From positions 6,793 to 70,792 of the forward strand of contig JACRKQ010000053.1 of NCBI GenBank assembly GCA_016219705.1: DNA of 64,000 bases. The letters are read 5' to 3'. The translations under genes and the position numbers were made by a program. Below are positions 1-63,856 of this stretch, piece after piece; position 1 is the stretch's first letter, and every line of letters begins with the position of its first letter. The notes below the pieces were generated by a model. It worked only from the letters and a program-made list of their open reading frames with translations, was not told the origin of the DNA and searched no databases. This stretch comes from Candidatus Saganbacteria bacterium (GTDB taxonomy: Bacteria > Margulisbacteria > WOR-1 > O2-12-FULL-45-9).

Positions 1-1265
1 GGATCAAATACCATCTGGGCGTTGACGGAATAAGTTTGCCGCTTTTAATTTTGACCGCTCTCCTCTCTGTTATCTCCTTAATTTATTCCTGGATCATTAA
101 AGAACGGACCAAAGAGTATTTTATCCTTTTCCTCTTGCTTCAGATGGGGATGCTGGGGGTCTTTTCAGCTTTAGACCTTTTCCTTTTTTACGTCTTTTGG
201 GAGATAAGTTTGGTGCCGATGTATTTTTTGATCGGTGTCTGGGGCGGGGCGCGCAAAGAATACGCGGCGATCAAATTCTTCCTGTATACGCTTTTAGGCA
301 GTCTGGCGATGCTCCTCTCGATCCTGGTTTTGTATTTTAATACTTCCCCGCATACCTTTGATCTCCTGGAGTTGGCAAAAATTGCTGATCCTCGAACCGC
401 GGCGCTGGTCTTTAGCGGTTTCTTTTTGGCTTTTGCGATTAAGGTCCCGATGTTCCCTTTTCACACCTGGCTGCCGGACGCGCACGTGGAGGCGCCCACG
501 GCTGGTTCCGTGATCCTGGCGGGAGTTCTTTTAAAGATGGGGGCGTACGGTTTTATTCGGTTTTCTCTGCCGCTCCTGCCGGAGGCTTGCCGCTTTTTTG
601 CCGTACCGATCGCGATCCTGGCAGTGATCAGCATCGTTTATGGCGCCCTGGTTTCGCTGGCGCAGACTGACCTTAAAAAATTAATCGCCTACAGCTCGGT
701 GAATCATATGGGTTACGTGATGCTCGGTATTGCCGCCGGGATGATGAGTTCCCCCCAATTGGCGGCGCAGTCAACAGCGATCTCCGGCGCGGTCCTGCAG
801 ATGGTTAGCCACGGCTTGATCACGGGCGGGCTCTTTTTATTGGTGGGCGTGATTTATGAGCGGACACATACCCGCCAGCTCGCCGATTTCGGCGGCCTGG
901 GGGCGAAGCTCCCGGTCTTTGCCGGCATCTTTAGTTTTTTTGCTTTCGGTTCGCTCGGCTTGCCGGCGCTGTCCGGTTTTATCAGCGAGTTTTTGATTTT
1001 TATCGGGACTTTTCCGATCTATCCGGTTTTGACCGGACTATCGCTGATTGGCGTCTTATTAACGGCCGCGTTATTTTTGGTCACCATTGAAAAAATGTTA
1101 TTGGGTCCGCTTTTGCCGAAAAACAATCTTTTAGTTGACGTTGATAAACGTGAAATTTTCTGTCTCGGGGTTTTGGGCGTTCTCGTTTTGCTCCTGGGCG
1201 TCTACCCGCTTCCATTGTTGAAAATGATGGAAAACTCTGTAGCGTTTATTTTGGGAGGAAGATAA
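1..1265 (+). CDS. nuoM: NADH-quinone oxidoreductase subunit M, 5'-truncated by window edge (frame open to position 1)
   Basis: Conserved complex I antiporter-like motifs (FFYVFWEISLVPMYFLIG, WLPDAHVEAPTAGSVILAGVLLKMG); aligns to E. coli NuoM from about residue 90. Confidence 0.85.
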   Translation, partial: IKYHLGVDGISLPLLILTALLSVISLIYSWIIKERTKEYFILFLLLQMGMLGVFSALDLFLFYVFWEISLVPMYFLIGVWGGARKEYAAIKFFLYTLLGSLAMLLSILVLYFNTSPHTFDLLELAKIADPRTAALVFSGFFLAFAIKVPMFPFHTWLPDAHVEAPTAGSVILAGVLLKMGAYGFIRFSLPLLPEACRFFAVPIAILAVISIVYGALVSLAQTDLKKLIAYSSVNHMGYVMLGIAAGMMSSPQLAAQSTAISGAVLQMVSHGLITGGLFLLVGVIYERTHTRQLADFGGLGAKLPVFAGIFSFFAFGSLGLPALSGFISEFLIFIGTFPIYPVLTGLSLIGVLLTAALFLVTIEKMLLGPLLPKNNLLVDVDKREIFCLGVLGVLVLLLGVYPLPLLKMMENSVAFILGGR

Positions 1266-1266
1266 T

Positions 1267-2640
1267 TTGTCTCTGTTTTGGCCGGAAGGAATAGTTTTAT
1301 TAACTGCCTGTCTCGTCCTGGTAGGGGATCTCTTCCCGCGGCGTGTCCAGCCTGTTCCGATCGCGCTTGCAGGTTTAGGGCTAAGCTTGCTTTCCCTGCT
1401 GGTGTTGCGCTCGGGCGGAAGTTTAGCCGCTTTGGCTCACAATTTTTATTGGTTTGATCTCTTCTCCCTGTTTTTCAAAGGCTTGTTTTTAGGCATTGGC
1501 TTAATTATCGTCATGATAAATATCGATTATTTTAAGGCCCAGGTCAAGAAAAATGAAGGTGAGTTTTATTTCTTGTTCCTAATTTCTCTTTTAGGCTTGA
1601 TGATCGTTGTCAGTTCGCCGAATTTGCTTTTAATCTATCTGGGCATAGAGATTGTCGGTCAATCATCTTATCTCCTCGCTGGCTGGCAAAAAAACCTGCG
1701 GCGGTCCGGGGAAGCGGCCATCAAATATTTTCTTTTTGGCGCCGTCGCCTCGGCGATTTTTCTTTACGGCGTTTCCTTATTCTATGGGCTGACCGGCAGT
1801 TTTGATTTAAGCCGGTTACTTGTTTCTCCTTTGCTCTCGCCGTTATATTATGCCGCCTTGATTTTTATGGTCCTGGGTTTTGGTTTTAAGATTGCCATGG
1901 CGCCGATGCAATTCTGGTGTCCCGATGTTTACGAAGGAGCGCCAATACCGATCACCGCTTATCTCTCCGTCGGCCCCAAAGCGGCCGGATTTGCCGTGCT
2001 TTTACGGTTTATAACGTTAGCGCGGGCGGATCTTATTTGGCTTTTTGCTCTGTTAGCGGCGGTGACGATGACTTGGGGCAATCTTGTTGCTTTAAGACAG
2101 AAAAACATCAAGCGCTTATTGGCCTATTCCAGTATTGCCCAAGCCGGTTACATCTTAATCGGTTTAGTCTCCCCGCAGTTAGGCTACGGGGTGGTCGGTT
2201 TTTATCTTTTGGCTTACGCGCTGGCAAATTTAGGGATCTTTGCTATTGTCATTTATTTATCTTTAATTTTGCAAAGCGAAAATATCGATGATTACGCCGG
2301 TTTTGCCCGCCGGTCGCCGGCTTTGGCGGGAGCGCTGGCGCTATTTTTGTTTTCCCTGATCGGCATACCTCCTCTGGCCGGTTTCGTCGGTAAATTTTTG
2401 ATTTTCAAGGCGGCGGTGGGGAGCGGTTTTCTCTGGCTGGCGCTTTTGGGCGTTATCAATAGCGTTGTTTCGGTCTATTATTATCTCAATATTTTACGGG
2501 TGATCTACTTTAAGCCAGGGGACGAAACAGCGATTAATCTTCCGGCGGCGATTGCCTTGGCGGTCATGGCTTGTTTAATTGGCACTATTGTTTTTGGCCT
2601 TTTTCCCGATTTGGCCGGCAACTTCTTTTTAAAAATTTAA
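1267..2640 (+). CDS. nuoN: NADH-quinone oxidoreductase subunit N
   Basis: Polytopic membrane protein immediately after nuoM; LLAYSSIAQAGYILIG motif typical of NuoN. Confidence 0.8.
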   Translation: MSLFWPEGIVLLTACLVLVGDLFPRRVQPVPIALAGLGLSLLSLLVLRSGGSLAALAHNFYWFDLFSLFFKGLFLGIGLIIVMINIDYFKAQVKKNEGEFYFLFLISLLGLMIVVSSPNLLLIYLGIEIVGQSSYLLAGWQKNLRRSGEAAIKYFLFGAVASAIFLYGVSLFYGLTGSFDLSRLLVSPLLSPLYYAALIFMVLGFGFKIAMAPMQFWCPDVYEGAPIPITAYLSVGPKAAGFAVLLRFITLARADLIWLFALLAAVTMTWGNLVALRQKNIKRLLAYSSIAQAGYILIGLVSPQLGYGVVGFYLLAYALANLGIFAIVIYLSLILQSENIDDYAGFARRSPALAGALALFLFSLIGIPPLAGFVGKFLIFKAAVGSGFLWLALLGVINSVVSVYYYLNILRVIYFKPGDETAINLPAAIALAVMACLIGTIVFGLFPDLAGNFFLKI

Positions 2641-4403: not shown

Positions 4404-5414
4404 TTATAGACGCAAGCTGGCAACAGGGGAGAGGGATAATGACGAATGACTAATGACTAATGACGAATTAATGAATTTATAATACCCAGCACAGCCAATC
4501 ATGGCTGCGTTATCAGTACAATATTCAAAGGGAGGAATTATTACTTCCAGCCCTTCTTTCTGACCTCTTTTTTGTAATCGACTCCTTAAGCTGGAATTGG
4601 CCGAGACGCCGCCGGCGAGGGTGACAATTTGGACGTTGCGATCTTTGGCCGCGCGAATGGTTTTCTCTACCAGCGTTTCGACGATGGCTTCCTGAAAACT
4701 AGCGACGAGGTCTGGAACTTGTGAAGCGTGAAGAGTGAGGCGTGAAACGTAATTTACAACCGCTGTTTTGATTCCGCTGAAACTGAAATCGTAACCCTGG
4801 TCCATCATAGGGCGGGGAAATTTGATGGCGGCTGGATTTCCTCTCTTGGCCAACTTATCAATAACCGGTCCGCCGGGATAACCCAAACCCAAAAAACGAG
4901 CGACTTTATCAAACGCTTCTCCCGCCGCATCATCCCGAGTCCGGCCCAGCGTTTCATATTCTCCATGACCTTTGACGAGAATAATCATTGTGTGCCCGCC
5001 GGAGACTAATAAACTAATAAAGGGAAAACTTAGAATTTTAGATTTAGAGTTTAAGAAGTTGGCGTATATGTGTCCTTCAAGATGGTTAACTTCAACCAGC
5101 GGGATTTTTCTTCCCCAGGCAATGGCTTTAGCTGCGCAGAGCCCGACGAGGAGGGAGCCGACCAAGCCTGGGCCATAAGTTACGGCAACGGCATTTATGT
5201 CGCCAAACCCAACGTTGGCTCTTTCCAGCGCTTCTTTAATGACCGGATTGATCACTTCAATATGTTTGCGAGCGGCAACTTCGGGAACAATCCCGCCATA
5301 TTTTTTATGAAATTCAATTTGCGAGGAGATGACGTTGGAAAGAACTTCCTGTCCGTCTCTGACAACGGCGGCGGCGGTTTCGTCACAGGATGTTTCGATG
5401 GCTACTATAAACAC
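4404..5414 (-). CDS. tsaD: tRNA N6-adenosine threonylcarbamoyltransferase
   Basis: Kae1/TsaD motifs (IETSCDETAAAV, SLLVSGGHT, DDAAGEAFDKVAR, AGGVSAN); contains heptamer-repeat-derived segments. Confidence 0.85.
   Translation of the reverse strand: MFIVAIETSCDETAAAVVRDGQEVLSNVISSQIEFHKKYGGIVPEVAARKHIEVINPVIKEALERANVGFGDINAVAVTYGPGLVGSLLVGLCAAKAIAWGRKIPLVEVNHLEGHIYANFLNSKSKILSFPFISLLVSGGHTMIILVKGHGEYETLGRTRDDAAGEAFDKVARFLGLGYPGGPVIDKLAKRGNPAAIKFPRPMMDQGYDFSFSGIKTAVVNYVSRLTLHASQVPDLVASFQEAIVETLVEKTIRAAKDRNVQIVTLAGGVSANSSLRSRLQKRGQKEGLEVIIPPFEYCTDNAAMIGCAGYYKFINSSLVISHSSLSLSPVASLRL
4437..4478. repeat. heptamer array (TAATGAC/GAATGAC)x4 plus degenerate units, 42 nt, encoding the C-terminal tail of tsaD
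   Basis: Direct reading of sequence. Confidence 0.85.
4721..4755. repeat. heptamer array GTGAAGC GTGAAGA GTGAGGC GTGAAAC inside tsaD
   Basis: Direct reading. Confidence 0.8.
5021..5048. repeat. irregular TTAGANT ~7-nt tandem repeat inside tsaD
   Basis: Direct reading. Confidence 0.6.
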
Positions 5415-6478
5415 AGCAGAGGAACCTCCTTTTTGGACAATGACAGTGGTCGGGCATCACGCTGGCCCAGGAAGACGTCGGGGAAGATATCAAGGGGCCA
5501 ACCCAGTTCGTTCAAAGAAAGGGAAAAATAATTAGTGGCATTATAGGCAAAATCGCCGTAGGAATGGTAGGCGTAATGTAAACTGACGCCGGCGTAATGG
5601 AAAGTTGCTCCGTAAGTGAAATTATTGGTCAAGGTCGAGCTCTGCGGGTCCTGGTCGACGCCGGCGCGTAAAGTTAAAAATGGATTAGGCGCAAATTCAA
5701 TTCCGGTATGGATGGTTGTCGATTTGGCTGTTTGCAGACTTACATTGGCGTCGGCCGCGATGGAGAGATCAACCGGCGCATAAACAGCCGCTTTTAATTC
5801 TTCGCCCAAGAGAAAAAACCGGGAGCCGATTTTTATTGAGAGAGGTAGATTTTCTCCCTGGGAATTTGCGATGATTTTACTAGAACTGAAGAGATTTTGG
5901 CCGACAACGCCAAAGCTAAACGGACCAACTCCCTGCTGCAGCAAACCGACGTCCAGGTTCCAGCAGCTGCCGGAGCCGGCGCTGACTTCATAGCCATTCT
6001 GGGTATAATATTTCAAGTTAAGCCCCCAGGAGAAGCGTTCATTAAGACGGCGGCCGAACGAGAGGAAGATAACGCTATCGTTGAAAGAGGTTGTTGATTT
6101 TGGTAAAACGCTGGCCGAATCCCTGATTTCAATTCCTCCGATATTGGCGCCGACATAACCCAGCCCGATGGCGCTCTGCTCGCCGAGAGGATAAACGCCG
6201 CCTAGCAGAGAATAAGTGACATCCTCCATGACATTGGCTGACATTGAGAGGAGTTCAAAAGCGTCGATACCGCCCAATCCAGCTGGATTGCTGAAAATAG
6301 TATCAGCGGATTCTCCGACCGCCACGTATGCTCGTCCCATTCCCAGCGCGCGGGCGCCAACGCCGATGGTGAGAGGATCAAAGGTTGTTTGGGCGGCAAC
6401 AACACTGGGAAGAAATGACAAATGACAAATGACAAATGACAAATGAAGGAATCGCTTCGCGATATTATAATAATTCAT
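5405..6478 (-). CDS. secreted outer-membrane beta-barrel protein, PorV/PorQ/FadL-like
   Basis: N-terminal signal peptide followed by GARALGMGRAYVAVGESADTIFSNPAGLG (FadL/PorV-family N-terminal signature), alternating beta-strand pattern, aromatic C-terminus; family assignment from memory only. Confidence 0.4.
   Translation of the reverse strand: MNYYNIAKRFLHLSFVICHLSFLPSVVAAQTTFDPLTIGVGARALGMGRAYVAVGESADTIFSNPAGLGGIDAFELLSMSANVMEDVTYSLLGGVYPLGEQSAIGLGYVGANIGGIEIRDSASVLPKSTTSFNDSVIFLSFGRRLNERFSWGLNLKYYTQNGYEVSAGSGSCWNLDVGLLQQGVGPFSFGVVGQNLFSSSKIIANSQGENLPLSIKIGSRFFLLGEELKAAVYAPVDLSIAADANVSLQTAKSTTIHTGIEFAPNPFLTLRAGVDQDPQSSTLTNNFTYGATFHYAGVSLHYAYHSYGDFAYNATNYFSLSLNELGWPLDIFPDVFLGQRDARPLSLSKKEVPLLCL
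6413..6452. repeat. (AAATGAC)x4 + AAATGAAGGAAT terminus, antisense within signal-peptide codons of PorV-like gene
   Basis: Direct reading. Confidence 0.9.
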
Positions 6479-13192: not shown

Positions 13193-13756
13193 TTGCTTTT
13201 CATGGCGATACCAATTAACGAAATCAAACCCGGGATGACCGTATCAATAAACCGGGATCTTTTTCGCTGCCTGGATTACCACCATCAGCGTGCCGCCCAG
13301 CAGAGCTGGATTAAAATTAAATTTAAAAACCTGCGCAGCGGGGCGATAATAGACCGCACTTTTAAGCCCGGCGAAAAAATAGAGCCGGCGCATATTGAAT
13401 ATAAGCAAATGCAATTCCTCTACGCTGATTTAGCTTTGTTCCATTTTATGGATCAGACTACTTATGAACAGATTGCTCTCCCCAAAGAAAAAGTCAGCGA
13501 CGCGGCGAAATATATTAAGGAAGGTTTTGTGGTCGGTATTTCTTTCTATGGAGATGAAGCGCTGGATGTTAGCCTGCCAGCTGCGGTAGAGCTCAAAGTC
13601 GTAGAAACTTCGCCAGGATTTAAAGGCGACACGGTTTCCGGGACCAAACCGGCGACGATGGAGACCGGATTGGTCGTGCAAGTGCCGTTTTTTGTCAATG
13701 TCGGAGATCTGCTTAAGGTGGGGACTGAAGAAGGGAAATACTTAGGGAGGGCATAA
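13193..13756 (+). CDS. efp: elongation factor P
   Basis: Full-length alignment to EF-P (KPGFKGDTVSGTKPATMETG, VQVPFFV); true start may be the second Met (MAIPINE). Confidence 0.85.
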   Translation: MLFMAIPINEIKPGMTVSINRDLFRCLDYHHQRAAQQSWIKIKFKNLRSGAIIDRTFKPGEKIEPAHIEYKQMQFLYADLALFHFMDQTTYEQIALPKEKVSDAAKYIKEGFVVGISFYGDEALDVSLPAAVELKVVETSPGFKGDTVSGTKPATMETGLVVQVPFFVNVGDLLKVGTEEGKYLGRA

Positions 13757-13758
13757 TA

Positions 13759-13798
13759 AAATGACAAATGACAAATTACAAATGACAAATGAAGGAAT
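13759..13798. repeat. AAATGAC AAATGAC AAATTAC AAATGAC + AAATGAAGGAAT in efp-accB spacer
   Basis: Direct reading. Confidence 0.9.
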
Positions 13799-13803
13799 TT
13801 ATT

Positions 13804-14256
13804 ATGGTTGACTGGGAATTGGTCGAAAAACTTATCAAAACAGTTAAAGAGGCAGGGATTTCTGGTTTAGCGGTTGAAGAAAAAGGGGTTAAATATGAAG
13901 TGCGAAGCGAGGGCGGCCAGATCACTGCTCATCCGACCGTGATCTCCGCGCCGGCGCACCAGACAGTTCATGCTTCGGCAAAAGTTGAATCAGAAACTAT
14001 GGCGGAAGAAGCTGATGTGGTGGCCATTACTTCACCTATGGTCGGGACTTTTTACCGATCGCCATCGCCGGAATCGCCGCCGTTTGTTGCGGTCGGCGAT
14101 ACAATTGCTTCCAGTAAACCCGTTTGCATCATTGAAGCGATGAAGCTCTTTAACGAGATTGAAGCGGAAGTCAGCGGTAAAATTATAAAAATATTAGTGG
14201 AAAACGGCCAACCGGTGGAATACGGCCAAAAATTGATGCTGGTTAAAAAAGGCTAG
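13804..14256 (+). CDS. accB: biotin carboxyl carrier protein / biotinyl-domain protein
   Basis: C-terminal biotinyl domain with EAMKLFNEI (AMK biotinylation motif). The ORF track starts at 13789 inside the repeat terminus; ATG 13804 has AAGGA 7 nt upstream. Confidence 0.7.
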
Positions 14257-20258: not shown

Positions 20259-20329
20259 GGGAGTGTCGGTTAATGGTAAACCACTGGTCTCCAAAACCAG
20301 GACTGGGGGTTCGAGCCCTCCCACTCCCG
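20259..20329 (+). tRNA. tRNA-Trp (anticodon CCA)
   Basis: Hand-folded cloverleaf: acceptor GGGAGTG/CACTCCC, D-arm GGTT-AATGGTA-AACC, anticodon arm CTGGT-CTCCAAA-ACCAG, T-arm GGGGG-TTCGAGC-CCTCC; canonical rpmG-tRNATrp-secE-nusG context. Confidence 0.8.
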
Positions 20330-23242: not shown

Positions 23243-26200
23243 TGGTAAAGCGTACAATATTAGTTGATGAAAAGGCCAGGAAAGTTGTTGAAGCGCCGGA
23301 TCTGCTGGAATTGCAAAAAGATTCTTTCCGGTGGTTCTTGGAAGAAGGCTTGCCTGAAGAGATCCGCAATGTTTCCCCAATTAAGGGATACGAAGGGAAA
23401 CTGGAGCTCTCTTTTACCGGCAAATATGTGCTGGGCAAACCAAAGTTTCCGCCCCAGGATTGCTTGATACGGGAAACAACTTATGCCATGCCGCTCAAGG
23501 TTGAAACGCGGTTGCTGAAGAATCAGAGCAAAGAAGTTCAATCACAGCAGGTCTTTATCGGTGATTTGCCGATGATGACAGAGCGCGGTACTTTCATCAT
23601 TAATGGTGCGGAACGGGTCATCGTTTCGCAGCTTGTCCGCTCGCCCGGGGTTTATTACCGCGAATCAAAACGCATTGAACGCGTTGGTAAGACTTTCTAT
23701 TACGCGACGGTTATTCCTGACCGCGGCGCCTGGCTGGAGATTGAGACCGACGCTAACGGCGCGGTTTCAACTCGCATTAACCGCACTCGCAAGATTCCCA
23801 TCACCATGTTTCTGGCGGCGATCGGCTGCACAGAAAAGGAGACATTGGAAGCTCTGTCAGAAGGAGAGTTCCGTCGCCGCTCGCTTAAAGAATGTCAGAT
23901 TTTACCAGAGGAAGAGGCGTTAATCGAAGTTTACAAAAAGCTGCGCCCCGGAGATCCTGTTACCCAGGAAGGGGCAAAAGTTTATCTCAATAACCTTTTC
24001 TTTAACAGCCGCCGTTATGATTTAGGTCGCGTCGGCCGCTACAAAATGAATCGCAAACTTGGGATCTCTGTCCCGGAAGATGAATGTGTGTTGACCAAAG
24101 TTGATATTTTAGCCATGGTCATATATCTCATTAAAATTAATTCCGGCGAAGGGATTGCTGATGATATTGATCACCTTGGCAACCGCCGTATTCGCGCCGT
24201 CGGTGAATTGCTGCAGCGCCAGCTGCGTCTCGGTTTGGCCAGGGTCGAGCGTTTAGTTAAAGAACAGATGATGATTAAAGGTGATGAAGTAGTGACGCCT
24301 GGACAATTGATAAATATCCGTCCACTACAAGCCGTTATTAAGGAATTCTTTGGGTCCAGCCAGTTGTCGCAATTTATGGACCAGACGAACCCGTTGGCGG
24401 AATTAACCCATAAACGGCGTTTGTCGGCCTTAGGTCCCGGCGGATTAAGCCGGGAGCGAGCGGGTTTTGAAGTCCGTGATATCCATCCTTCCCACTATGG
24501 CCGCGTCTGTCCGATTGAAACACCAGAAGGCCCGAACGCCGGTTTGATCGCCTCTTTATCAACTCACGCCAGGGTTAATAAGTTCGGCTTTATTGAAACA
24601 CCTTACCGCAAAGTGGAAAAAGGCGTGGTGAGCAATAAAATCGAATATTTAACGGCGGATGCCGAAGATTTCCATAAGATCGCTTCTTTTGATGTCCGCC
24701 TTGACAAAAACAATAAAATAATTGAAGAACAGGTCCCTGTCCGCTATCGTCGGGCTTTTGTCTTTGCTGACAATAAAGAAGTGACCTATATCGGCGTGGC
24801 TGCGGAACAGATTGTCGGTATTACTTCCGCCATGATCCCCTTCATCGAACATGATGACGCTAACCGCGCTTTGATGGGCGCCAATATGCAGCGCCAGTCT
24901 GTCCCCGTATTGCAACCGGAGGCGCCTATTGTCGGCACCGGGTTTGAAGATAAAGTTGCCAGCGATTCCCGGACCCTGGTCACCGCGGAAAATCCCGGTA
25001 AAGTAATTAAAGTTTCTGCGGACGAGATCATTATCCAGCGCGGCAACGGAAAAAAAGATCTTTATCGCTTGCTGACTTTTTGCCGCAGCAACCAGAACAC
25101 CCTAATCCACCAGCGGCCAATTGTTAAACTGGGAGATCAAGTTAAAGCCAACGAAGTCTTGGCCGATGGTTCCGCCACTGAAAATGGCGAATTGGCCCTG
25201 GGGCGCAATGTTTTAGTCGCGATGATGCCCTGGGAGGGCTATAACTATGAAGACGCGATTATCTTGTCAGAAAGATTAGTCAAAAAAGATCTGTTGACCT
25301 CTATTCATATTGAACGCCTGGAGGTTGAAGTCCGGGCGACAAAACTGGGAATGGAAGAAATTACCAGGGAAATTCCCAATGTCAGCGAAGATGCCTTAGC
25401 CAATCTTGATGACCGCGGCGTTATTGTCGCCGGCGCGGAGGTCAGTCCAGGTGAGATTCTTGTTGGCAAGGTTACCCCCAAAGGTGAAACGGAATTACCG
25501 GCGGAAGAAAAACTCCTGCGGGCAATTTTTGGCGATAAAGCGCGCGACATGCGCGATACTTCCCTGCGCGTCCCTCCCGGCGAGGGAGGGATAGTGATCG
25601 CAGTGCGGGTTTTCTCGCGTGAGAATGGCGATGAATTGCCTCCCGGCGTCCATGAATTGATCCGTGTCTATATGGCGCAGATGCGCAAAATTGCCGTCGG
25701 TGATAAGATTGCCGGCCGCCATGGCAACAAAGGCGTGGTTGCCCGTATCCTGCCGGAAGAAGATTTACCATACCTCCCTGATGGCACTCCAGTTGATGTG
25801 ATTCTAAATCCTTTAGGCGTTCCTTCGCGTATGAATATCGGCCAAATTTTTGAATTATTGCTGGGTCACGCCGGGCATATTAATAATCTCCACTACGAAG
25901 TCCCGGCTTTTGATGAGGCGACGGAAGAAGACGCTTCGGTTAACACTATCGAACGTGAATTAACCAGGGCGAGAGAAAAGAGCGGTTTTCAATGGTTAGA
26001 TAACAGCGGTAAAGTGGAGTTGCGCGATGGGCGCACCGGCCGGTCGTTTGGGCGCAAGATTGCCGTTGGTTACATGTACTTAATGAAATTAATCCATTTA
26101 GTTGATGATAAAATGCACGCGCGCTCCACGGGTCCGTATTCATTGATCACCCAGCAGCCATTGGGCGGCAAAGCCCAATTTGGCGGCCAGCGCTTCGGAG

Positions 26201-50557: not shown

Positions 50558-50597
50558 GAATGACTAATTCCTAATGCCTAATGTCTAATGAAGGAAT
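50558..50597. repeat. GAATGAC TAATTCC TAATGCC TAATGTC + TAATGAAGGAAT filling spacer upstream of truA
   Basis: Direct reading. Confidence 0.9.
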
Positions 50598-51364: not shown

Positions 51365-51401
51365 CGCTTATTAATGAAGATGGTATAATTAAAAGAAGAT
51401 C

Positions 51402-52169
51402 ATGCCCCATCTATCAGAATTATTCAAAGAAATCGACCGCAAAAAGGCCTTGATCGACCAGGCCAGGCCGTTGCCTGCCATCATCCTGGATAAACTGACC
51501 GAATACCTCGATATCGAATGGACTTACAATAGCAATGCGATTGAAGGGAACACGATGACCCGCCAGGAGACGATGTTAATCTTAAAAGAAGGCTTAACCA
51601 TCTCTGGAAAAAGCATGCGGGAACATCTGGAGGTTACTAACCACAAAAATGCGATTGATTACCTGGCGGAGCTTTTGACTAAAGTTGAGCCGATTACCCA
51701 AAAAGATGTAAAACGTATTCACTTTTTAGTTTTAGAAGGAATTAATAATGAAAACGCGGGGAAATATCGGAGCGTTGAAGTATATATATCTGGTACAACT
51801 TATTTGCCTCCAAAACCAGCTGAAGTGCCAGAATTAATGCTCGATTTTTCCAAATGGCTTGTGGAGCGACAAGAACTGCAAGATTTACATCCGGTTAAAT
51901 TAGCGGCAGAGGCCCATTATAAGTTTGTGACAATTCATCCTTTTATCGATGGCAATGGCCGGACAGCGAGGCTTCTAATGAATTTGATTCTGATGAAATA
52001 TGGTTATCCGATCGCGGTTTTAGAATGTGAAACAGATAAAAGAAAACGATATTATCAGGCGATCCGAACAGGGCATACGGGAGATTTGTTTCCATTCGAA
52101 ATTTTAATTGCTGAATATGTAAATTTAACTGCTGATAAATTTGTCGGCTCGATTCCAAAAGGGGGATAA
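51402..52169 (+). CDS. Fic-family protein, class II (N-terminal inhibitory helix SNAIEG) - paralog 1
   Basis: HPFIDGNGRTARLL Fic motif; (S/T)xxxE(G/N) inhibitory motif at residues ~43-48. Confidence 0.8.
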   Translation: MPHLSELFKEIDRKKALIDQARPLPAIILDKLTEYLDIEWTYNSNAIEGNTMTRQETMLILKEGLTISGKSMREHLEVTNHKNAIDYLAELLTKVEPITQKDVKRIHFLVLEGINNENAGKYRSVEVYISGTTYLPPKPAEVPELMLDFSKWLVERQELQDLHPVKLAAEAHYKFVTIHPFIDGNGRTARLLMNLILMKYGYPIAVLECETDKRKRYYQAIRTGHTGDLFPFEILIAEYVNLTADKFVGSIPKGG

Positions 52170-52173
52170 TTGA

Positions 52174-52302
52174 AGCAGTAATCGTTATTTTATTTCCCGC
52201 CGCGGCAAGGTGGAAGCGGTGATTGTCAGCTCTGAAGAATTTGAAAGCTGGGGAGAAATCTTGCCGCCGCAGGGGTTGTGCTGGATGAAAGTGGAGTATT
52301 AA
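52174..52302 (+). pseudogene. start-less chimeric remnant: middle of phd-like antitoxin fused in frame to a truA 3'-end-like segment
   Basis: 52183-52256 is ~90% identical to phd 53950-54025. 52259-52302 resembles truA 51320-51364. Reads RYFISRRGKVEAVIVSSEEFESWGEILPPQGLCWMKVEY* with no start codon. Confidence 0.6.
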
Positions 52303-52303
52303 A

Positions 52304-52621
52304 TTATTTCAATTTAATACCAGTTTTTTTTATTTCATCGACAAATAAATTTTTTTGTGTAAAATCACCGGATGTAAACGGATGAATTTCAATAAGGTTT
52401 GATGTTTTACTTAAATACGGGATCAGCATTTTTGAATCATAAAATCTGATGCCGGTAAATTTAGATGAAACCAACGCCAAATCGATGTCACTTTCAGTTG
52501 TTGGCTGACCTTTGGCGTAGGATCCAAATAAATAAGCTTGCTTGATAGGAATATTTTTATTAAGCTGCCCAATTAAAAATTTCAGTTTTTTAATTATATT
52601 TTTATTTCTTTTAAAAGCCAT
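52304..52621 (-). CDS. minimal nucleotidyltransferase (MNT, antitoxin of HEPN/MNT module)
   Basis: GSYAKGQPTTESDIDLALV = GSxxxG...DxD NTase motif; ~30% GC. Confidence 0.7.
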   Translation of the reverse strand: MAFKRNKNIIKKLKFLIGQLNKNIPIKQAYLFGSYAKGQPTTESDIDLALVSSKFTGIRFYDSKMLIPYLSKTSNLIEIHPFTSGDFTQKNLFVDEIKKTGIKLK

Positions 52622-52995
52622 TTATATAAATCCTTTATTTTGGAAAAATAAATTTCTGTAAATTTTCTGGTGCAAAGCTTATAAAATTGAAATTTGTTGT
52701 CCGGATATCTGGCCTCTAAGTTGAAATCATTGATTTCTTTAAGAAAATTTATCGTTTCAACTGGCAAGCTTAATTTTGTTTTCTCTGCTAAATAATCTAA
52801 TTTGTGGATTTTTGGTGGGAAAGCGTTATTATCCCTGACATAATAAGCTTTGAGAACTTTTTCTATTACGAGATGAGCTAAAAATAGACACCAGTCATAA
52901 TGTTGGCTTGTGAATAAAGCTTCTGCTGTTTCTAAATCATGATGGGCTGATTTTAGCCAGTATTCTATCTGCTCTTTAATACTTTTAGCGAACAT
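52594..52995 (-). CDS. HEPN-domain protein (toxin partner of MNT)
   Basis: Pfam HEPN-like pattern (...QAVEKaLKA..., KIHKLDYL, EARYPD), overlaps MNT gene by 28 nt. Confidence 0.65.
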   Translation of the reverse strand: MFAKSIKEQIEYWLKSAHHDLETAEALFTSQHYDWCLFLAHLVIEKVLKAYYVRDNNAFPPKIHKLDYLAEKTKLSLPVETINFLKEINDFNLEARYPDNKFQFYKLCTRKFTEIYFSKIKDLYKWLLKEIKI

Positions 52996-53047
52996 GTTTA
53001 TATATTATACATTATTAATAATTTGATGTAAAATAAGGAATTATATC

Positions 53048-53815
53048 ATGCCCAATCTATCAGAACTGCTTAAAGAAATCGACCGCAAAAAGGCCTTAAT
53101 TGATCAGGCGAGGCCGCTGCCGAAAATTATTGTCGACAAGCTGTCGGAATATTTTACGGTTGAGTGGACTTATACGAGTAATGCGATAGAAGGGAACACT
53201 CTGGACCGGGCGGAAACTCTGGCTGTCTTAAAAGACGGTGCGACCATTGGTGGCAAGTCTTTAAAAGAGCATTTAGAGGCCATTAATCATAAAGCGGCCA
53301 TTACCTACATTAATGAAATATTTACTAAGGTTGAGCCGATTACGCAAAACGATATCAAATATCTCCACTCCTTGATTTTACGGGGGATCAATGACCGCTA
53401 CGCCGGACATTATCGGGATGTTGACGTTATTATTGTCGGCGCCAAACATATCCCTCCGCTGCCCGATAAAGTTCCCGCACTGATGAATGATTTTTCCCTG
53501 TGGCTGGTGGACCGACAGGAGACAAGAGATCTGCACCCTGTGGAATTTGCGGTGCTGGCACATTATCAGCTGGTCAATATTCATCCTTTTATTGACGGCA
53601 ACGGCAGAACATCCCGCTTGTTGATGAATCTGATTTTAATGAAATATGGTTATCCCATTGCTATTATTGATTGTGAAAAGGAGCCGCGGACTATTTATTA
53701 TCATGCCATAAGAAAAGCTGATGATGGCGACAATGTGCCGTTTAAAATTCTTGTTGCTGAATACGTTAACAAAACGGCGGATATTTATGTCGGCTCGATT
53801 CCAAAAAGGGGATAA
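53048..53815 (+). CDS. Fic-family protein, class II - paralog 2
   Basis: HPFIDGNGRTSRLL and TSNAIEGN motifs; ~60% aa identity to paralog 1 with near-identical termini. Confidence 0.8.
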   Translation: MPNLSELLKEIDRKKALIDQARPLPKIIVDKLSEYFTVEWTYTSNAIEGNTLDRAETLAVLKDGATIGGKSLKEHLEAINHKAAITYINEIFTKVEPITQNDIKYLHSLILRGINDRYAGHYRDVDVIIVGAKHIPPLPDKVPALMNDFSLWLVDRQETRDLHPVEFAVLAHYQLVNIHPFIDGNGRTSRLLMNLILMKYGYPIAIIDCEKEPRTIYYHAIRKADDGDNVPFKILVAEYVNKTADIYVGSIPKRG

Positions 53816-53836
53816 TTTGAACTTTACAGATTGTAC

Positions 53837-53856
53837 ATAATATCGTACAATTAAAA
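53837..53856. promoter_or_regulatory. inverted repeat TTGTAC-n8-GTACAA upstream of phd/relE
   Basis: Direct reading. Confidence 0.35.
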
Positions 53857-53869
53857 AAAAGGGTGGGGT

Positions 53870-54145
53870 ATGAAAAAAAATGAAACAACTATTCCTGTGA
53901 GCGAAGCGCGCCAGAAACTCCCGGAGCTGGTGGACAACGTTAGAAAGCTGCATAACCGTTATTTTATTTCCCGCCGCGGCAAGGTAGAGGCGGTGATTGT
54001 CAGTTCTGAAGAATTTGAAAGCTGGGGGGAAACGCTGGACATTGTCGCCAATCGGGCGGAGATGAAGGCCATGGCCCGGGCTTTTGCCGACATTAAAAAA
54101 GGCCGGGTAAAATATTTTGAAGATATATTTGGAGACAAGGCCTGA
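53870..54145 (+). CDS. Phd/YefM-family antitoxin
   Basis: IPVSEARQKLPELVD...VIVSSEEFESW pattern. Confidence 0.7.
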   Translation: MKKNETTIPVSEARQKLPELVDNVRKLHNRYFISRRGKVEAVIVSSEEFESWGETLDIVANRAEMKAMARAFADIKKGRVKYFEDIFGDKA

Positions 54146-59058: not shown

Positions 59059-61923
59059 CTGGAGTACAAACAAACCCTCAATCTGCCCCAGACCGCTTTT
59101 CCCATCCGCGCTAATTTGCAAAAAATTGAAGCGGATTTGCTGGCGCATTGGGAAAATCTTGACCTCTATCAGCAAATTCAAGCCAAGAATAAAACAGCCG
59201 CTAAAAAATTTGTTTTGCATGACGGCCCCCCTTATCCTAATGGCGATATTCACCTTGGCCATGCTTTGAATAAAATCATCAAAGATATCATTATTAAATA
59301 TAAATCGATGCAGGGCTTTGCCTCTCCCTATATCCCCGGTTGGGACTGTCACGGTTTGCCGATCGAAACACAGCTGATCAAGCAGTTGACAGATGAAGAG
59401 CGCAAAAAATATAAAGAGCCGAATAAAAAAGTTGAGTTTAGGAATAGGTGTAAAGAATATGCCTTAAAATATGTTGACTTGCAGCGCCAGGAGTTTAAAC
59501 GCCTGGGAGCGCTTGGCGACTGGGAAAACCCATATTTAACGATTGATCCTCTATATGAAGCCGACATAATTCGCCTCTTTGGGGATTTGGCCGAAAAAGG
59601 TTATGTTTATCGCGGCTTAAAACCGATTCACTGGTGTCCGCATTGCGAAACGGCATTGGCGGAAGCGGAATTGGAATATGAGGAGGATAAGTCGCCGTCA
59701 ATCTACGTCAAATTCGAAATCCGAAATCCGAAATCAGAAATAAATTCCAAAATTAAAAATCCAAACTTGCCAACTGATTTGCCCTGGTTTTTTGTCGTTT
59801 GGACGACGACGCCGTGGACTCTGCCAGCGAACATGGCGATTGCAGCGCATGCGGAATACGAGTACGTATTTATTAATGTCAAATGTCAAATGACAAATGA
59901 CAAATATCGGAATGAAATTTATATTGTTGCCGAAGGTTTGCTGGAAGATTTTGTAAAAAGAGTCGGGATTACAGATTATCAAATCATTGATAAGACCAAA
60001 GGGGAATATTTAGAAGGCGTTGTCGCTAAACATCCCTTTATTGATTGCGACGTTATGCTCGTCTTGGATGAATATGTCACCCTGGAGCAGGGGACGGGCT
60101 TGGTACATATTGCTCCAGGACACGGAATTGAAGATTATAAAGTTGGTCTAAAATATAAATTGTTCCCCATTGTCATGCCGGTTACGGCTGATGGGCGCTT
60201 TGACGAAACGGTCCCGGAATTTATCCGCGGTGAATTTTATAAGAAAGCGAATGACTTAATTATTGAGCAACTCAAAAATGGAGGAAGTTTTCTCAGGTTA
60301 GAGAACATAAAACATTCTTTCCCTCATTGCTGGCGCTGTAAGAATCCCGTTATTTTTCGGGCAACCGAGCAGTGGTTTGTTTCTGTTGATCATCTTGGAA
60401 TGCGCGAGAAGGCATTGAAGGCCATTATTGATACAAAGTGGTATCCGGCTTGGGGAGAAAATCGGATTCGCGGGATGGTAGAAACCCGTCCGGATTGGTG
60501 TATCTCTCGTCAGAGAACCTGGGGGGTGCCGATTCCGGTTTTTTATTGTGATAAATGTCACCAGCCGTCAATGACCGGAATTTTTAATGAATCAATCCGC
60601 AAAATTGTTTTAGAACGGGGGACGAATGGTTGGTTTGATTTGTCAGCCAAGGAGATTTTGCCGTCGGGAACAAAATGTTCAAAATGCGACGGCGATTCTT
60701 TTACTAAAGAAACCGATATTCTCGATGTCTGGTTTGAATCAGGCTCGTCTCACGCGCTGCTGGAGCGCTTGCCGGATCATCATTGGCCGGCGGACTTATA
60801 TCTTGAGGGTTCTGATCAGCATCGCGGTTGGTTTCAAAGTTCTTTATTGATTGCTGTGGGATATAAAGGGAGGGCGCCGTTTAATTCTGTCCTGACTCAT
60901 GGCTTTACCATTGATGATAAGGGAAAAAAGATGAGCAAATCCCTGGGCAATGTCATCGGTCCGCAAGAGGTGGTTAAAGAATATGGAGCGGATGTTTTGC
61001 GTCTCTGGGTTGCGTCGACAGATTTTCGCAACGATATGGCGGCGTCAAAGAATATTCTAGTTCAGGTCAGAGAGGCCTATTCAAAAATTCGCAATACCTG
61101 CCGTTTTTTAATCAGTAATTTATATGATTTTACCCCCTCCTCCGACGTGCGTCGGAGTCTCCCCCTTGAAAAGGGGGAGAATGAGAGGGGGTTGCTTGAA
61201 CTTGACCGTTGGATACTTTTGCGCTTGAATCGATTAATTGAGAGGATAATCCAATCTTACGACGAATATGAACTGCACGTTGTTTATCACGCTCTTTATG
61301 AATTTTGTGTAAACGATCTCTCGGCTCATTATCTCGATATGTCCAAAGATCGGCTGTATTGCGACGGTAAAAGTTCGCCAGAGCGACGCTCGGCCCAATT
61401 TGCGATGTGGGAGATATTGTTTGCCTTAGTTGGAATGATGGCCCCTGTTCTCTCCTTTACGGCGGAAGACATCGGGCGGCATATGGCGGCAATGACTAAT
61501 GACAAATGCCTAATGCCTAATGAAGGCAGTATCTTTTTATCAAACTTCCCTAAAATTAAGGAAGAATATTTAGATAAAGAGTTAGAAGCTCGCTGGGAAA
61601 AGATTATGGTTTTGCGAGCGGAAGTTTATAAAGTGTTGGAAGAGAAGCGGGCCAATAAAATTATTTCGGCTTCGATTGAAGCCGTTGTGGAGATTGGCTT
61701 GCAGGGTCGGGAATGGCTGAAAGCTGTTGATCCCAAAATTCTCCCGATGGTTTTAATTGTTTCCCAAGTCAAATTGGTCGACGGAGATAAAATCGCAGTA
61801 AGTAAGGCGTCTGATCAAAAATGCGGCCGTTGCTGGATGTTGCTCCCGACGGTGGGGAAGAGCCATCAACATCCGGATTTGTGTGAGCGTTGTGAAAAGG
61901 TTGTCAGGGAATTGACAGGGTAA
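59059..61923 (+). CDS. ileS: isoleucine--tRNA ligase (probable CTG start; the ORF track begins at TTG 59116)
   Basis: HLGHALNK (HIGH), KMSKS, C-terminal zinc finger CGRCW...CERC; conserved N-terminus EYKQTLNLPQTAFP is encoded upstream of the called start. Confidence 0.85.
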   Translation: MEYKQTLNLPQTAFPIRANLQKIEADLLAHWENLDLYQQIQAKNKTAAKKFVLHDGPPYPNGDIHLGHALNKIIKDIIIKYKSMQGFASPYIPGWDCHGLPIETQLIKQLTDEERKKYKEPNKKVEFRNRCKEYALKYVDLQRQEFKRLGALGDWENPYLTIDPLYEADIIRLFGDLAEKGYVYRGLKPIHWCPHCETALAEAELEYEEDKSPSIYVKFEIRNPKSEINSKIKNPNLPTDLPWFFVVWTTTPWTLPANMAIAAHAEYEYVFINVKCQMTNDKYRNEIYIVAEGLLEDFVKRVGITDYQIIDKTKGEYLEGVVAKHPFIDCDVMLVLDEYVTLEQGTGLVHIAPGHGIEDYKVGLKYKLFPIVMPVTADGRFDETVPEFIRGEFYKKANDLIIEQLKNGGSFLRLENIKHSFPHCWRCKNPVIFRATEQWFVSVDHLGMREKALKAIIDTKWYPAWGENRIRGMVETRPDWCISRQRTWGVPIPVFYCDKCHQPSMTGIFNESIRKIVLERGTNGWFDLSAKEILPSGTKCSKCDGDSFTKETDILDVWFESGSSHALLERLPDHHWPADLYLEGSDQHRGWFQSSLLIAVGYKGRAPFNSVLTHGFTIDDKGKKMSKSLGNVIGPQEVVKEYGADVLRLWVASTDFRNDMAASKNILVQVREAYSKIRNTCRFLISNLYDFTPSSDVRRSLPLEKGENERGLLELDRWILLRLNRLIERIIQSYDEYELHVVYHALYEFCVNDLSAHYLDMSKDRLYCDGKSSPERRSAQFAMWEILFALVGMMAPVLSFTAEDIGRHMAAMTNDKCLMPNEGSIFLSNFPKIKEEYLDKELEARWEKIMVLRAEVYKVLEEKRANKIISASIEAVVEIGLQGREWLKAVDPKILPMVLIVSQVKLVDGDKIAVSKASDQKCGRCWMLLPTVGKSHQHPDLCERCEKVVRELTG
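59715..59749. repeat. (CGAAATC)x3 plus degenerate units inside ileS
   Basis: Direct reading. Confidence 0.85.
59874..59915. repeat. TAATGTC AAATGTC AAATGAC AAATGAC AAATATC GGAATGA, 42 nt in-frame in ileS
   Basis: Direct reading. Confidence 0.9.
61133..61191. repeat. 59-nt GC-rich nested palindromic element inside ileS: outer stem CCCCCTC/GAGGGGG enclosing two perfect hairpins
   Basis: Inner hairpins: CTCCGACG-tg-CGTCGGAG (61140-61157) and TCTCCCCC-TTGAAAA-GGGGGAGA (61158-61180). Confidence 0.8.
61490..61526. repeat. CAATGAC TAATGAC AAATGCC TAATGCC TAATGAAGG in ileS
   Basis: Direct reading. Confidence 0.85.
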
Positions 61924-63814: not shown

Positions 63815-63856
63815 AAATGACAAATGCCAAATTACAAATGACAAATGAAGGAAGAA
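63815..63856. repeat. AAATGAC AAATGCC AAATTAC AAATGAC + AAATGAAGGAAG downstream of ahcY
   Basis: Direct reading. Confidence 0.9.

Follow-up and report, generated by a model that had tools for sequence, protein, structure and literature searches.

Why does a gene for an essential tRNA synthetase carry, within its reading frame, a GC-rich palindrome that closely related orthologs lack? The question is raised by a stretch of 64,000 nucleotides from a Candidatus Saganbacteria genome of the Margulisbacteria (GenBank assembly GCA_016219705.1, contig JACRKQ010000053.1, positions 6,793 to 70,792; hereafter the window), whose isoleucine-tRNA ligase gene, ileS, contains a 61-nt element made of nested hairpins. 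A preliminary description, made from the letters of the window, had likened the element to in-frame palindromic mobile elements such as those of Rickettsia or to Correia-like elements, with a structured RNA or a ribosome-pausing site as alternatives. We show that the element is a multi-copy repeat, that its copies lie in frame in many genes and in both orientations, that its distribution among ileS orthologs is patchy, and that it sits in a loop predicted to be disordered. In our judgment, it is very probably a mobile palindromic element that inserted in frame in a permissive loop of the synthetase (IleRS).

The element is built, in this order, from a 5' terminal arm (ACCCCCTC), a variable hairpin (P2), a conserved hairpin (P3), a short linker and a 3' terminal arm (GAGGGGGT), with the two arms pairing as an outer stem (P1; Table 1). 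Folded as RNA with RNAfold, it adopts a nested three-helix structure with a minimum free energy of -43.5 kcal/mol, compared with -24.2 +/- 3.5 kcal/mol for dinucleotide shuffles (z = -5.57), none of which is as stable (0/200), and the same fold is obtained under DNA parameters (minimum free energy -24.9, z = -6.69). The nested double hairpin originally placed at 61133-61191 is thus recovered, and a closing A:T pair extends it to the full 61 nt. Both inner hairpins are present, although not with the loops drawn for them: the 2-nt loop of the first is infeasible, so that one pair opens to leave 7 bp and a 4-nt loop, and the second folds as 10 bp with a 3-nt loop, smaller than had been noted. The GC contrast described earlier (~65% against ~45%) holds: the element has 66%, the kilobases on its two sides have 44% and 43%, and ileS as a whole has 43-44%. 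At the gathering threshold, Rfam 15 gave no match on the element and a single tRNA in the whole window; a permissive Rfam scan returned U4atac, twister-P1 and CRISPR-DR53 matches that are noise, far under their cut-offs, and a scan for intrinsic terminators and promoters found no site at the element and no terminator-like tail.

Copies of the element retrieved elsewhere (loci carry L numbers below) range from 58 to 69 nt. The 5' arm is unchanged in 36 of 36 aligned copies and only P2 varies, an invariance of P1 and P3 that is partly fixed by the search patterns; the P3 loop triplet is free to vary, and the 3' arm is eroded in some orthologous copies (L003, L154). P2 elsewhere reads GTCCC-TTCG-GGGAC or is a longer self-complementary variant, the window's own version being distinct from the rest. 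Folded one by one, 11 of 12 other P2 variants still form hairpins, the exception being the decayed P2 of L005.

The host protein is identical to an NCBI entry (P0001, 'Candidatus Saganbacteria bacterium', 100% identity) that begins 19 codons upstream and has 954 aa, and its next-nearest IleRS relatives, ~68% identical, all belong to Margulisbacteria, Saganbacteria or WOR-1. As the preliminary description had it, the element is in frame within the ileS open reading frame (ORF): its predicted peptide, TPSSDVRRSLPLEKGENERG, covers 20 residues (IleRS residues 673-692) rich in Pro, Ser, Gly and Glu. In an AlphaFold model of the window IleRS built with 99 homologs, the mean predicted local distance difference test score (pLDDT) is 88.6 and residues 673-692 connect helices 645-667 and 695-716; pLDDT falls below 50 at residues 680-688, which together with the KMSKS loop form the least confident part of the model, and confidence also dips at heptamer arrays within ileS that are described below. 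According to this model, the ileS copy would occupy a disordered loop, a location that fits a selection filter in which only insertions in tolerant loops or linkers survive. The loop has 25 residues in the window protein against 13-16 in element-free Margulisbacteria orthologs, and solved IleRS structures (8c9e/8c9f, 1ffy) are shorter by 9 residues there, so that the insert appears to lengthen the loop by about 9-12 residues over element-free orthologs. The insertion lies in a surface loop of IleRS where the catalytic body meets the anticodon-binding helical domain, and it is tolerated there. We propose that what landed in this loop is a solo copy, lacking any gene, of a small palindromic and mobile DNA with an 8-bp terminal inverted repeat (ACCCCCTC / GAGGGGGT) around a variable hairpin and a conserved C5/G5 hairpin. 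Since intragenic copies are in frame, the ribosome would read through the element and add the 20-residue peptide that it encodes.

A different outcome can be conceived, in which the 20 residues are absent from the protein because the ribosome bypasses the element, as in the hop of T4 gene 60, or because it is removed from the mRNA. Known bypass sites feature a very stable hairpin in coding sequence, and 61 nt is not a multiple of three. We nonetheless consider bypass or removal highly improbable: the host frame is open across the element in intragenic copies, with the flanks in register, which would be needless if the element were skipped; the lengths of the variants (58, 61, 64 and 67 nt) are multiples of three apart; there is no take-off codon with a stop codon after it; and no significant ribozyme or intron match was found, the twister-P1 hit reaching 13 bits against a cut-off of 67.

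Comparison of ileS orthologs indicates how the element came to be distributed. Among the 120 closest IleRS sequences, the stretch between a helix ending ...RFLLSNL(Y/N)DF and a helix starting LLEIDRW is hypervariable. Window-like loop peptides (TPSVPSGHLPLSKGENERG and similar) occur in four orthologs, whose DNA, obtained by exact protein look-up, carries the same element at the same site; the arms and P3 stems are identical there, and the middle hairpin differs. A fifth carrier, L128, has the element reverse-complemented at this site and a second copy elsewhere in ileS; the carriers reached via protein homology include L001, L003, L005 and L128. Third-codon identity among the ileS copies is 1.00 in the 5' arm and P3 stems and ~0.39 in the flanks, and the P3 loop codon varies freely. 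Because the stems are identical at third codon positions and the loop codon is free, the conserved unit is the nucleic-acid palindrome, not the peptide; the outcome that the preliminary description had named as refuting its reading, a sequence with no other copies whose orthologs share the peptide over non-palindromic DNA, is thus not what is observed. Its question whether ileS orthologs lack the insert is answered by the loop lengths given above, closely related orthologs being without it. Carriers are 78-80% identical to element-free orthologs (~72% for the window protein) and only 62-73% identical to one another, and another carrier was the nearest neighbour in 0 of 200 bootstrap replicates. 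The carriers do not form a clade, the nearest relatives of each being without the element, and such a scatter implies repeated gain, repeated precise loss, or both. Copy-specific variants common to L001 and L162 (76% amino acid identity) and to L003 and L154 (87%) suggest that some ileS copies also persisted vertically. The window belongs to a metagenome-assembled genome, and assemblers are known to go wrong at repeats; we give an assembly or chimera artefact almost no credence, given the intact reading frame and the recurrence of the same insertion at the same site in independent ENA, JGI and NCBI assemblies.

The IleRS loop homologous to the element's site is filled by unrelated inserts in other orthologs. 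These include a distinct nested palindrome of C and G runs (CCCTCACCCC/GGGGTGAGGG, -58.8 kcal/mol) at L127:8986-9045, two unrelated hairpins (-56.2 kcal/mol) at L126:12032-12118, and tandem heptamer arrays at L129:12101-12138 (CGACTNA) and L130:12014-12044 (GGGTCAA); heptamer arrays account for the period-7 peptide repeats (QTTDHRLQTTD) of many IleRS orthologs. Two further insertion hot spots lie after residues ~274 and ~812 of IleRS, and in one ortholog the element family occurs at ~274.

Evidence for mobility comes from copies outside ileS, which the preliminary description had suggested looking for and which were found in unrelated genes and in both orientations by genome and metagenome scans. 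A scan of 185,579 species genomes for the P3 pattern (CTCCCCCTTNNNAAGGGGGAG) gave at least 120 stretches, with 129 hits among the matches listed, to which the following statements refer. They come from the candidate phyla radiation (CPR/Patescibacteria), cyanobacteria, Planctomycetota, Poribacteria, Cellvibrio, Aeromonas, Photobacterium, Bacteroidota, Dehalococcoidia and others, and a single genome often has several of them. Most have ACCCCCTC and/or GAGGGGGT 3-6 nt away, though the pattern did not demand the arms, and several have an extra hairpin between arm and P3, as in the window. Of the 129, 36 lie in stop-free frames of at least 300 aa. By Pfam their hosts are real genes with the element inside the domains, namely Mur ligase, AlaRS, CysRS, IMPDH, NusA, UvrA, peptidase U32, a XerC-like recombinase, phosphoglucomutase, glycosyltransferases and FemAB. 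On these matches, the broader hairpin family spans many phyla and often lies within housekeeping genes of CPR bacteria. At six cyanobacterial loci (L039, L041, L062, L081, L084, L104), C5/G5 modules are arrayed beside a second palindrome, GACTTGTGTGTACACGGTAG, which ends in GTAG, like the repetitive extragenic palindromic sequences (REPs) associated with REP-associated tyrosine transposases (RAYTs).

The subfamily found in ileS was sought in metagenomes with the pattern ACCCCCTCTGTCCC-N(3-30)-P3, which gave 32 loci, 26 of them in stop-free frames of at least 150 aa. Four are ileS genes at the window's site, and at least 23 of the 32 copies are in frame in other identified genes. Six lie in ValRS genes (L133, L144, L145, L147, L156, L159), in the homologous loop just before Anticodon_1 (RFVLMN[element]ELADRWI), five in one orientation and one in the opposite; two lie at the catalytic/editing junction of LeuRS (L136, L149), again in both orientations. 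Three occupy the linker between Fer4_20 and Pyr_redox_2 in a GltD-like oxidoreductase (L134, L141, L153) and three the interdomain linker of a GT4 glycosyltransferase, and other hosts are TrpA, QueH, the AHAS small subunit, ThiE and a radical SAM enzyme. Class Ia aminoacyl-tRNA synthetase (aaRS) genes thus hold 12 of the 32 copies, 10 of them at one homologous loop. The GltD-like host of L141 shares 77% identity with its ortholog on a Margulisbacteria contig that has another palindrome at this linker, which indicates that the subfamily has dispersed within the window's own phylum. At least three copies lie on one 158-kb contig. The copies occur in several reading frames, and those examined are free of stop codons owing to their composition of C and G runs. 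At L129:20080-20170, the GltD-like linker of a Margulisbacteria contig holds a different palindrome, CTACCCTCCTCTCTCAGAGGGAGAGGGTAG, which is flanked by CTAC...GTAG and so resembles a GTAG-type REP; the region folds at -46.6 kcal/mol.

The dispersed copies also bear on another account of the locus, an ordinary lineage-specific expansion of the loop by slippage or duplication, with a palindrome that is incidental or due to selection on the peptide. The loop is indeed hypervariable in length and sequence, and many orthologs contain slippage-like heptanucleotide tandem arrays. A local expansion is, however, already contradicted by the presence of near-identical DNA in dozens of unrelated genes and phyla; moreover, the amino acid at the loop codon is not conserved, copies of the DNA are read in several frames and in either orientation, and a fold this stable did not arise in any of the shuffles. 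We therefore hold it to be extremely unlikely.

A weightier alternative, although still an unlikely one, is that the hairpin is or became a functional cis-acting nucleic-acid structure under selection, its mobile origin being secondary; it could, for example, pause the ribosome at a domain boundary so that the catalytic body folds first, or act in mRNA stability or processing. The very stable fold would suit such a role, as would the identity of the P3 stems and 5' arm, third positions included, across orthologs that are 64-87% identical and whose flanks agree at ~39%; the elements of L001 and L162 differ solely in the P3 loop. Copies also cluster at domain junctions, catalytic-to-anticodon in IleRS and ValRS and catalytic-to-editing in LeuRS, with further junction copies at the GltD and GT4 linkers, and in other orthologs this very ileS site is taken by hairpins of unrelated families. 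Most orthologs, however, have no hairpin at this site, the element's parts are free to decay (in L003 and L154 the 3' arm, in L005 P2), and copies occur in both orientations and several reading frames. Domain linkers may simply be the places most tolerant of insertion, and stem identity could equally result from recent insertion or from gene conversion among copies. Neither a terminator-like tail nor an Rfam match accompanies the structure.

If the element is mobile, the question becomes what moves it. Among 1.3 Mb of fetched loci, a search for long units flanked by paired arms gave six candidates, of which one, at L150, was taken further; in it, two inverted modules enclose a gene (Table 1). 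The product of this gene is a DUF559 protein (PF04480, E = 1.2e-27) with a Vsr-like PD-(D/E)XK nuclease fold, annotated at NCBI as Candidatus Margulisiibacteriota; its C-terminus runs into the hairpin, and between the gene and its upstream module there is a TATAAT-like box. When every ORF in the same 1.3 Mb was searched with the profile, seven distinct DUF559 genes emerged, plus near-identical copies, on two unbinned metagenome contigs (one of them annotated Margulisiibacteriota at NCBI), in two CPR genomes, in a gammaproteobacterial metagenome-assembled genome and on two viral contigs. Each of the seven has a P3 hairpin within 90 nt, and four are bracketed on both sides; three further homologs, chosen by protein similarity alone, are likewise all bracketed by hairpin modules (3/3). 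Two of these, L175, from a WOR-1 genome of the Margulisbacteria, and L177, have the layout ACCCCCTC-linker-P3, gene, P3-P2-GAGGGGGT, and the third, L178, has variant hairpins at its flanks. The modules stand in direct or inverted orientation. Of the 120 closest homologs of the L150 protein, ~20-35 end in C-terminal tails encoded by the hairpin (SPPYQGG, LPLTKGE, PPLVRGE); many are cyanobacterial, and many come from very short contigs, as is usual for repeats. DUF559 genes of one clade are therefore physically bracketed by modules of the element. Twelve IMG/VR viral contigs (L163-L174) carry arm-plus-P3 modules as well, which hints at phage-borne spread across phyla; in the near-identical stretches L165:14107-14593 and L172:180-666 a DUF559 gene adjoins the module.

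Deleting the stretch between both P3 hairpins of such a unit leaves arm-linker-P3-P2-arm', which is exactly the solo element of L128 and, reverse-complemented, the order found in the window (arm-P2-P3-linker-arm'); once the gene is removed, the termini of L150, L175 and L177 match those of both solo copies. Since removal of the gene between the inner hairpins yields the solo architecture, the element is probably a derivative of a DUF559 cassette, akin to a MITE (a miniature transposable element with inverted repeats), and would have arisen by loss of the stretch between the P3 hairpins of an arm-linker-P3, gene, P3-P2-arm' unit. The DUF559 cassette is possibly the autonomous form, and its nuclease may mobilise the hairpins or home into them; that DUF559 is the mobilising enzyme we rate at somewhat below even. 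In this respect, DUF559 proteins are reported to be enriched (odds ratio 14.3) among the predicted targets of programmed inversion, that is, genes flanked by inverted repeats (PMC9881135), and one member of the Vsr/DUF559/DUF2726 clade is a homing endonuclease of a group I intron (PMC3424549). Our literature search found no paper tying DUF559 to these hairpins, nor did full-text searches on the motif strings or on in-frame palindromes of CPR bacteria yield anything of relevance.

Table 1. Parts of the palindromic element, its host gene in the window, and DUF559 units at other loci (positions refer to the window, or to the locus named)
Feature	Position	Strand	Description
ileS, isoleucine-tRNA ligase (host gene)	59116..61923	+	935-aa ORF
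Complete solo palindromic element	61132..61192	+	61 nt; sequence, RNA and DNA folds, translation, alignment with 35 other subfamily copies
5' terminal arm	61132..61139	+	ACCCCCTC; pairs with 61185-61192 as outer stem P1, acting as terminal inverted repeat
Variable hairpin P2 (hairpin 1)	61140..61157	+	CTCCGACGTGCGTCGGAG; CTCCGACG-TG-CGTCGGAG
Conserved hairpin P3 (hairpin 2)	61158..61180	+	TCTCCCCCTTGAAAAGGGGGAGA; TCTCCCCCTT-GAA-AAGGGGGAGA; family signature
Linker	61181..61184	+	ATGA
3' terminal arm	61185..61192	+	GAGGGGGT
L150 cassette	13396-13909		two inverted arm-P2-P3 modules 514 nt apart around a 143-aa ORF
L132 unit with DUF559 gene	1156-1640		bracketed by hairpin modules
L083 unit with DUF559 gene	6009-6466		bracketed by hairpin modules
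L175 unit with DUF559 gene	1431-1970		bracketed by hairpin modules
L177 unit with DUF559 gene	1430-1965		bracketed by hairpin modules

Several observations weigh against a mobile element inserted in a permissive loop, or against parts of that account. The element is the only copy in the 64-kb window, where nothing else lies within 3 mismatches of either half, no further ACCCCCTC or GAGGGGGT arms occur and no DUF559 gene is present, and ~167 kb of flanks from nine Margulisbacteria loci hold no copy outside ileS. Around 20 full copies showed no direct repeat at their flanks that would mark a target-site duplication, and no conserved target motif was found around copies. Lengths of 58, 61, 64 and 67 nt are not multiples of three, so that the length alone does not keep the frame and only a subset of insertion events, or events accompanied by small target deletions, can survive. 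A PD-(D/E)XK nuclease is not a transposase, and DUF559 might home into pre-existing hairpins instead of moving them. Differences in orientation could stem from inversion in place rather than from independent insertion; because a palindrome can invert in this way, we downgraded the orientation flip of L128 and L144 as proof of independent insertion. Perfect P3 stems in the face of saturated synonymous sites could reflect selection for a function and not selfish persistence, and the share of copies in class Ia aaRS genes, at one loop above all, exceeds what a simple model of any permissive loop would give. It is this excess at the aaRS junction loop, together with the perfect P3 stems of vertically inherited ileS copies, that keeps alive a selected role such as a translational pause.

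How, then, does the element relate to known palindromic repeats? The functionally closest systems are the Rickettsia palindromic elements (RPEs), described as in-frame selfish palindromic DNA (Ogata et al. 2000, as summarised in PMC10969869), and intragenic REPs, whose reported sites include tRNA synthetase genes and which fall into GTAG- and CGTC-tagged superfamilies (PMC3733652). Like an RPE, the element is a small, dispersed, multi-copy palindromic repeat, many of whose copies lie in frame in protein-coding genes, often housekeeping genes and among them tRNA-related enzymes, where it would be read through as an extra peptide and sits where the protein fold tolerates it. It differs in its size (58-67 nt against roughly 100-150 bp for RPEs), in its signature of C5/G5 hairpins with ACCCCCTC arms in a nested three-helix fold, in its hosts (free-living Margulisbacteria, CPR, cyanobacteria and many other phyla, not Rickettsia) and in having a candidate partner gene, DUF559, where RPEs have none. 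Its length of 61 nt and its Saganbacteria host argue against membership of RPE-1 to RPE-10, and the resemblance is functional only. The earlier proposal of an in-frame palindromic mobile element is accordingly supported by the dispersed in-frame copies, but as an analogue, not a member, of the RPE and Correia families.

With REPs and REPINs the element shares a GC-rich hairpin repeat of tens of nucleotides in many copies, at times intragenic and including tRNA synthetase genes, and the bracketing of a small enzyme gene by repeat copies recalls a REPtron. The far larger share of its copies that lie inside genes, in frame, sets it apart from REPs. Identity with the GTAG or CGTC REPs can be ruled out, given that the consensus ACCCCCTCTGTCCC...GGGACATCTCCCCCTTnnnAAGGGGGAGAAnGAGAGGGGGT has neither tag, CGTC occurring solely in the window-specific P2, and that the partner gene is not a RAYT: the bracketed gene encodes a DUF559 (PF04480) PD-(D/E)XK nuclease instead of an IS200/IS605-type Y1 transposase. 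No Y1 transposase turned up, although no dedicated search for one was made.

The element also has features of MITEs such as Correia/NEMIS, ERIC, Nezha and QMITE: it is short, without coding capacity of its own, bounded by 8-bp terminal inverted repeats and strongly structured, it can create in-frame fusions, and it has the look of something left by deletion from a longer unit with the same ends and a gene. Its terminal inverted repeat is, however, just 8-9 bp with no target-site duplication detected, it is smaller than typical MITEs (70-300 bp), and the longer units with its termini (L150, L175, L177, L132, L083) encode the DUF559 nuclease and no recognisable transposase. The small dispersed repeats (SDRs) and the short tandemly repeated repetitive (STRR) heptamers of heterocystous cyanobacteria, reportedly described by Elhai and colleagues in 2008 and by Mazel and colleagues in 1990, offer another parallel. 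SDRs are tiny (about 20-60 nt), form hairpins and are sometimes nested, and their hosts belong to a sister lineage of Margulisbacteria. Heptanucleotide tandem arrays co-occur with them in the same genomes, as such arrays do with the element in the window; to our knowledge, neither in-frame colonisation of essential genes nor a link to DUF559 has been described for SDRs. Finally, a small Vsr-like PD-(D/E)XK nuclease as the engine of a selfish element, which is the role that DUF559 may play here, has a counterpart in the Vsr-fold homing endonucleases of the I-Bth0305I type, listed with the Vsr/DUF559/DUF2726 clade (PMC3424549). Those enzymes reside in phage genes, within group I introns, and their homing targets are cognate alleles that lack the intron, whereas here the DUF559 gene is free-standing and bracketed by hairpins, and gene-less hairpins are scattered in coding regions.

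Other repeats are present in the window. Tandem AAATGAC heptamers in ~4.5 copies occur at 4438-4468, 6413-6446, 13759-13792, 50559-50590, 59875-59905, 61491-61523 and 63815-63848, and a further array with the unit AAATCCG at 59710-59741. The AAATGAC arrays resemble cyanobacterial STRR repeats, and a ribosome-binding site with its start codon follows closely on several of them, which are thus just upstream; the heptamer is also found in the Margulisbacteria contigs L001, L126, L128 and L129. Three arrays are in frame within ileS, with the peptides KCQMTNDKY, MTNDKCLMPNE and RNPKSEINSKIKNP. A GC-rich hairpin in rpoB (TCCCTCCCGGCGAGGGAGGGA, 25571-25591, a perfect 8 bp) was rejected as a copy of the element, being a chance palindrome that encodes a conserved motif. 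At 51399-54032 there are direct repeats that have diverged, with a spacing of 1646-1774 nt and lengths of 212 nt (72% identity), 122 nt (71%) and 80 nt (94%); they point to paralogous genes in tandem, in a stretch of low GC (38% at 52-54 kb). A tRNA gene lies at 20259-20329.

In-frame palindromic 'selfish DNA' has so far been a textbook oddity of Rickettsia, and the copies described here place Rickettsia-like behaviour in free-living candidate phyla (Margulisbacteria/Saganbacteria and CPR), where the affected genes include those for essential proteins such as IleRS, ValRS, LeuRS, AlaRS, CysRS, IMPDH and NusA. They also indicate a routine remodelling of tolerated loops in core enzymes by tiny mobile hairpins. 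The phenomenon is known in principle; what is new are the lineages, the many essential genes and a plausible, previously unrecognised partner enzyme, and the DUF559 link would be the new part, if confirmed. There are practical consequences as well: annotation is affected by spurious 'PLSKGE'-type peptides and inflated protein lengths, alignment-based marker-gene phylogeny is affected too, and assembly suffers because many partner genes lie on very short contigs. It is conceivable, although we would put it at rather less than an even chance, that the C5/G5 modules and the DUF559 genes they bracket constitute an undescribed, cross-phylum class of mobile element, REPtron-like but driven by a Vsr-fold nuclease with no transposase, whose gene-less derivatives colonise genes in frame in Margulisbacteria and CPR and favour the catalytic-to-anticodon junction loop of class Ia aaRS. 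Bracketing by the modules suggests for DUF559, a very large domain of unknown function, a concrete role that can be tested, and brings into view a possible new mechanism of mobilisation with a Vsr-like nuclease at its core; if this picture is true, the large orphan family would gain a function.

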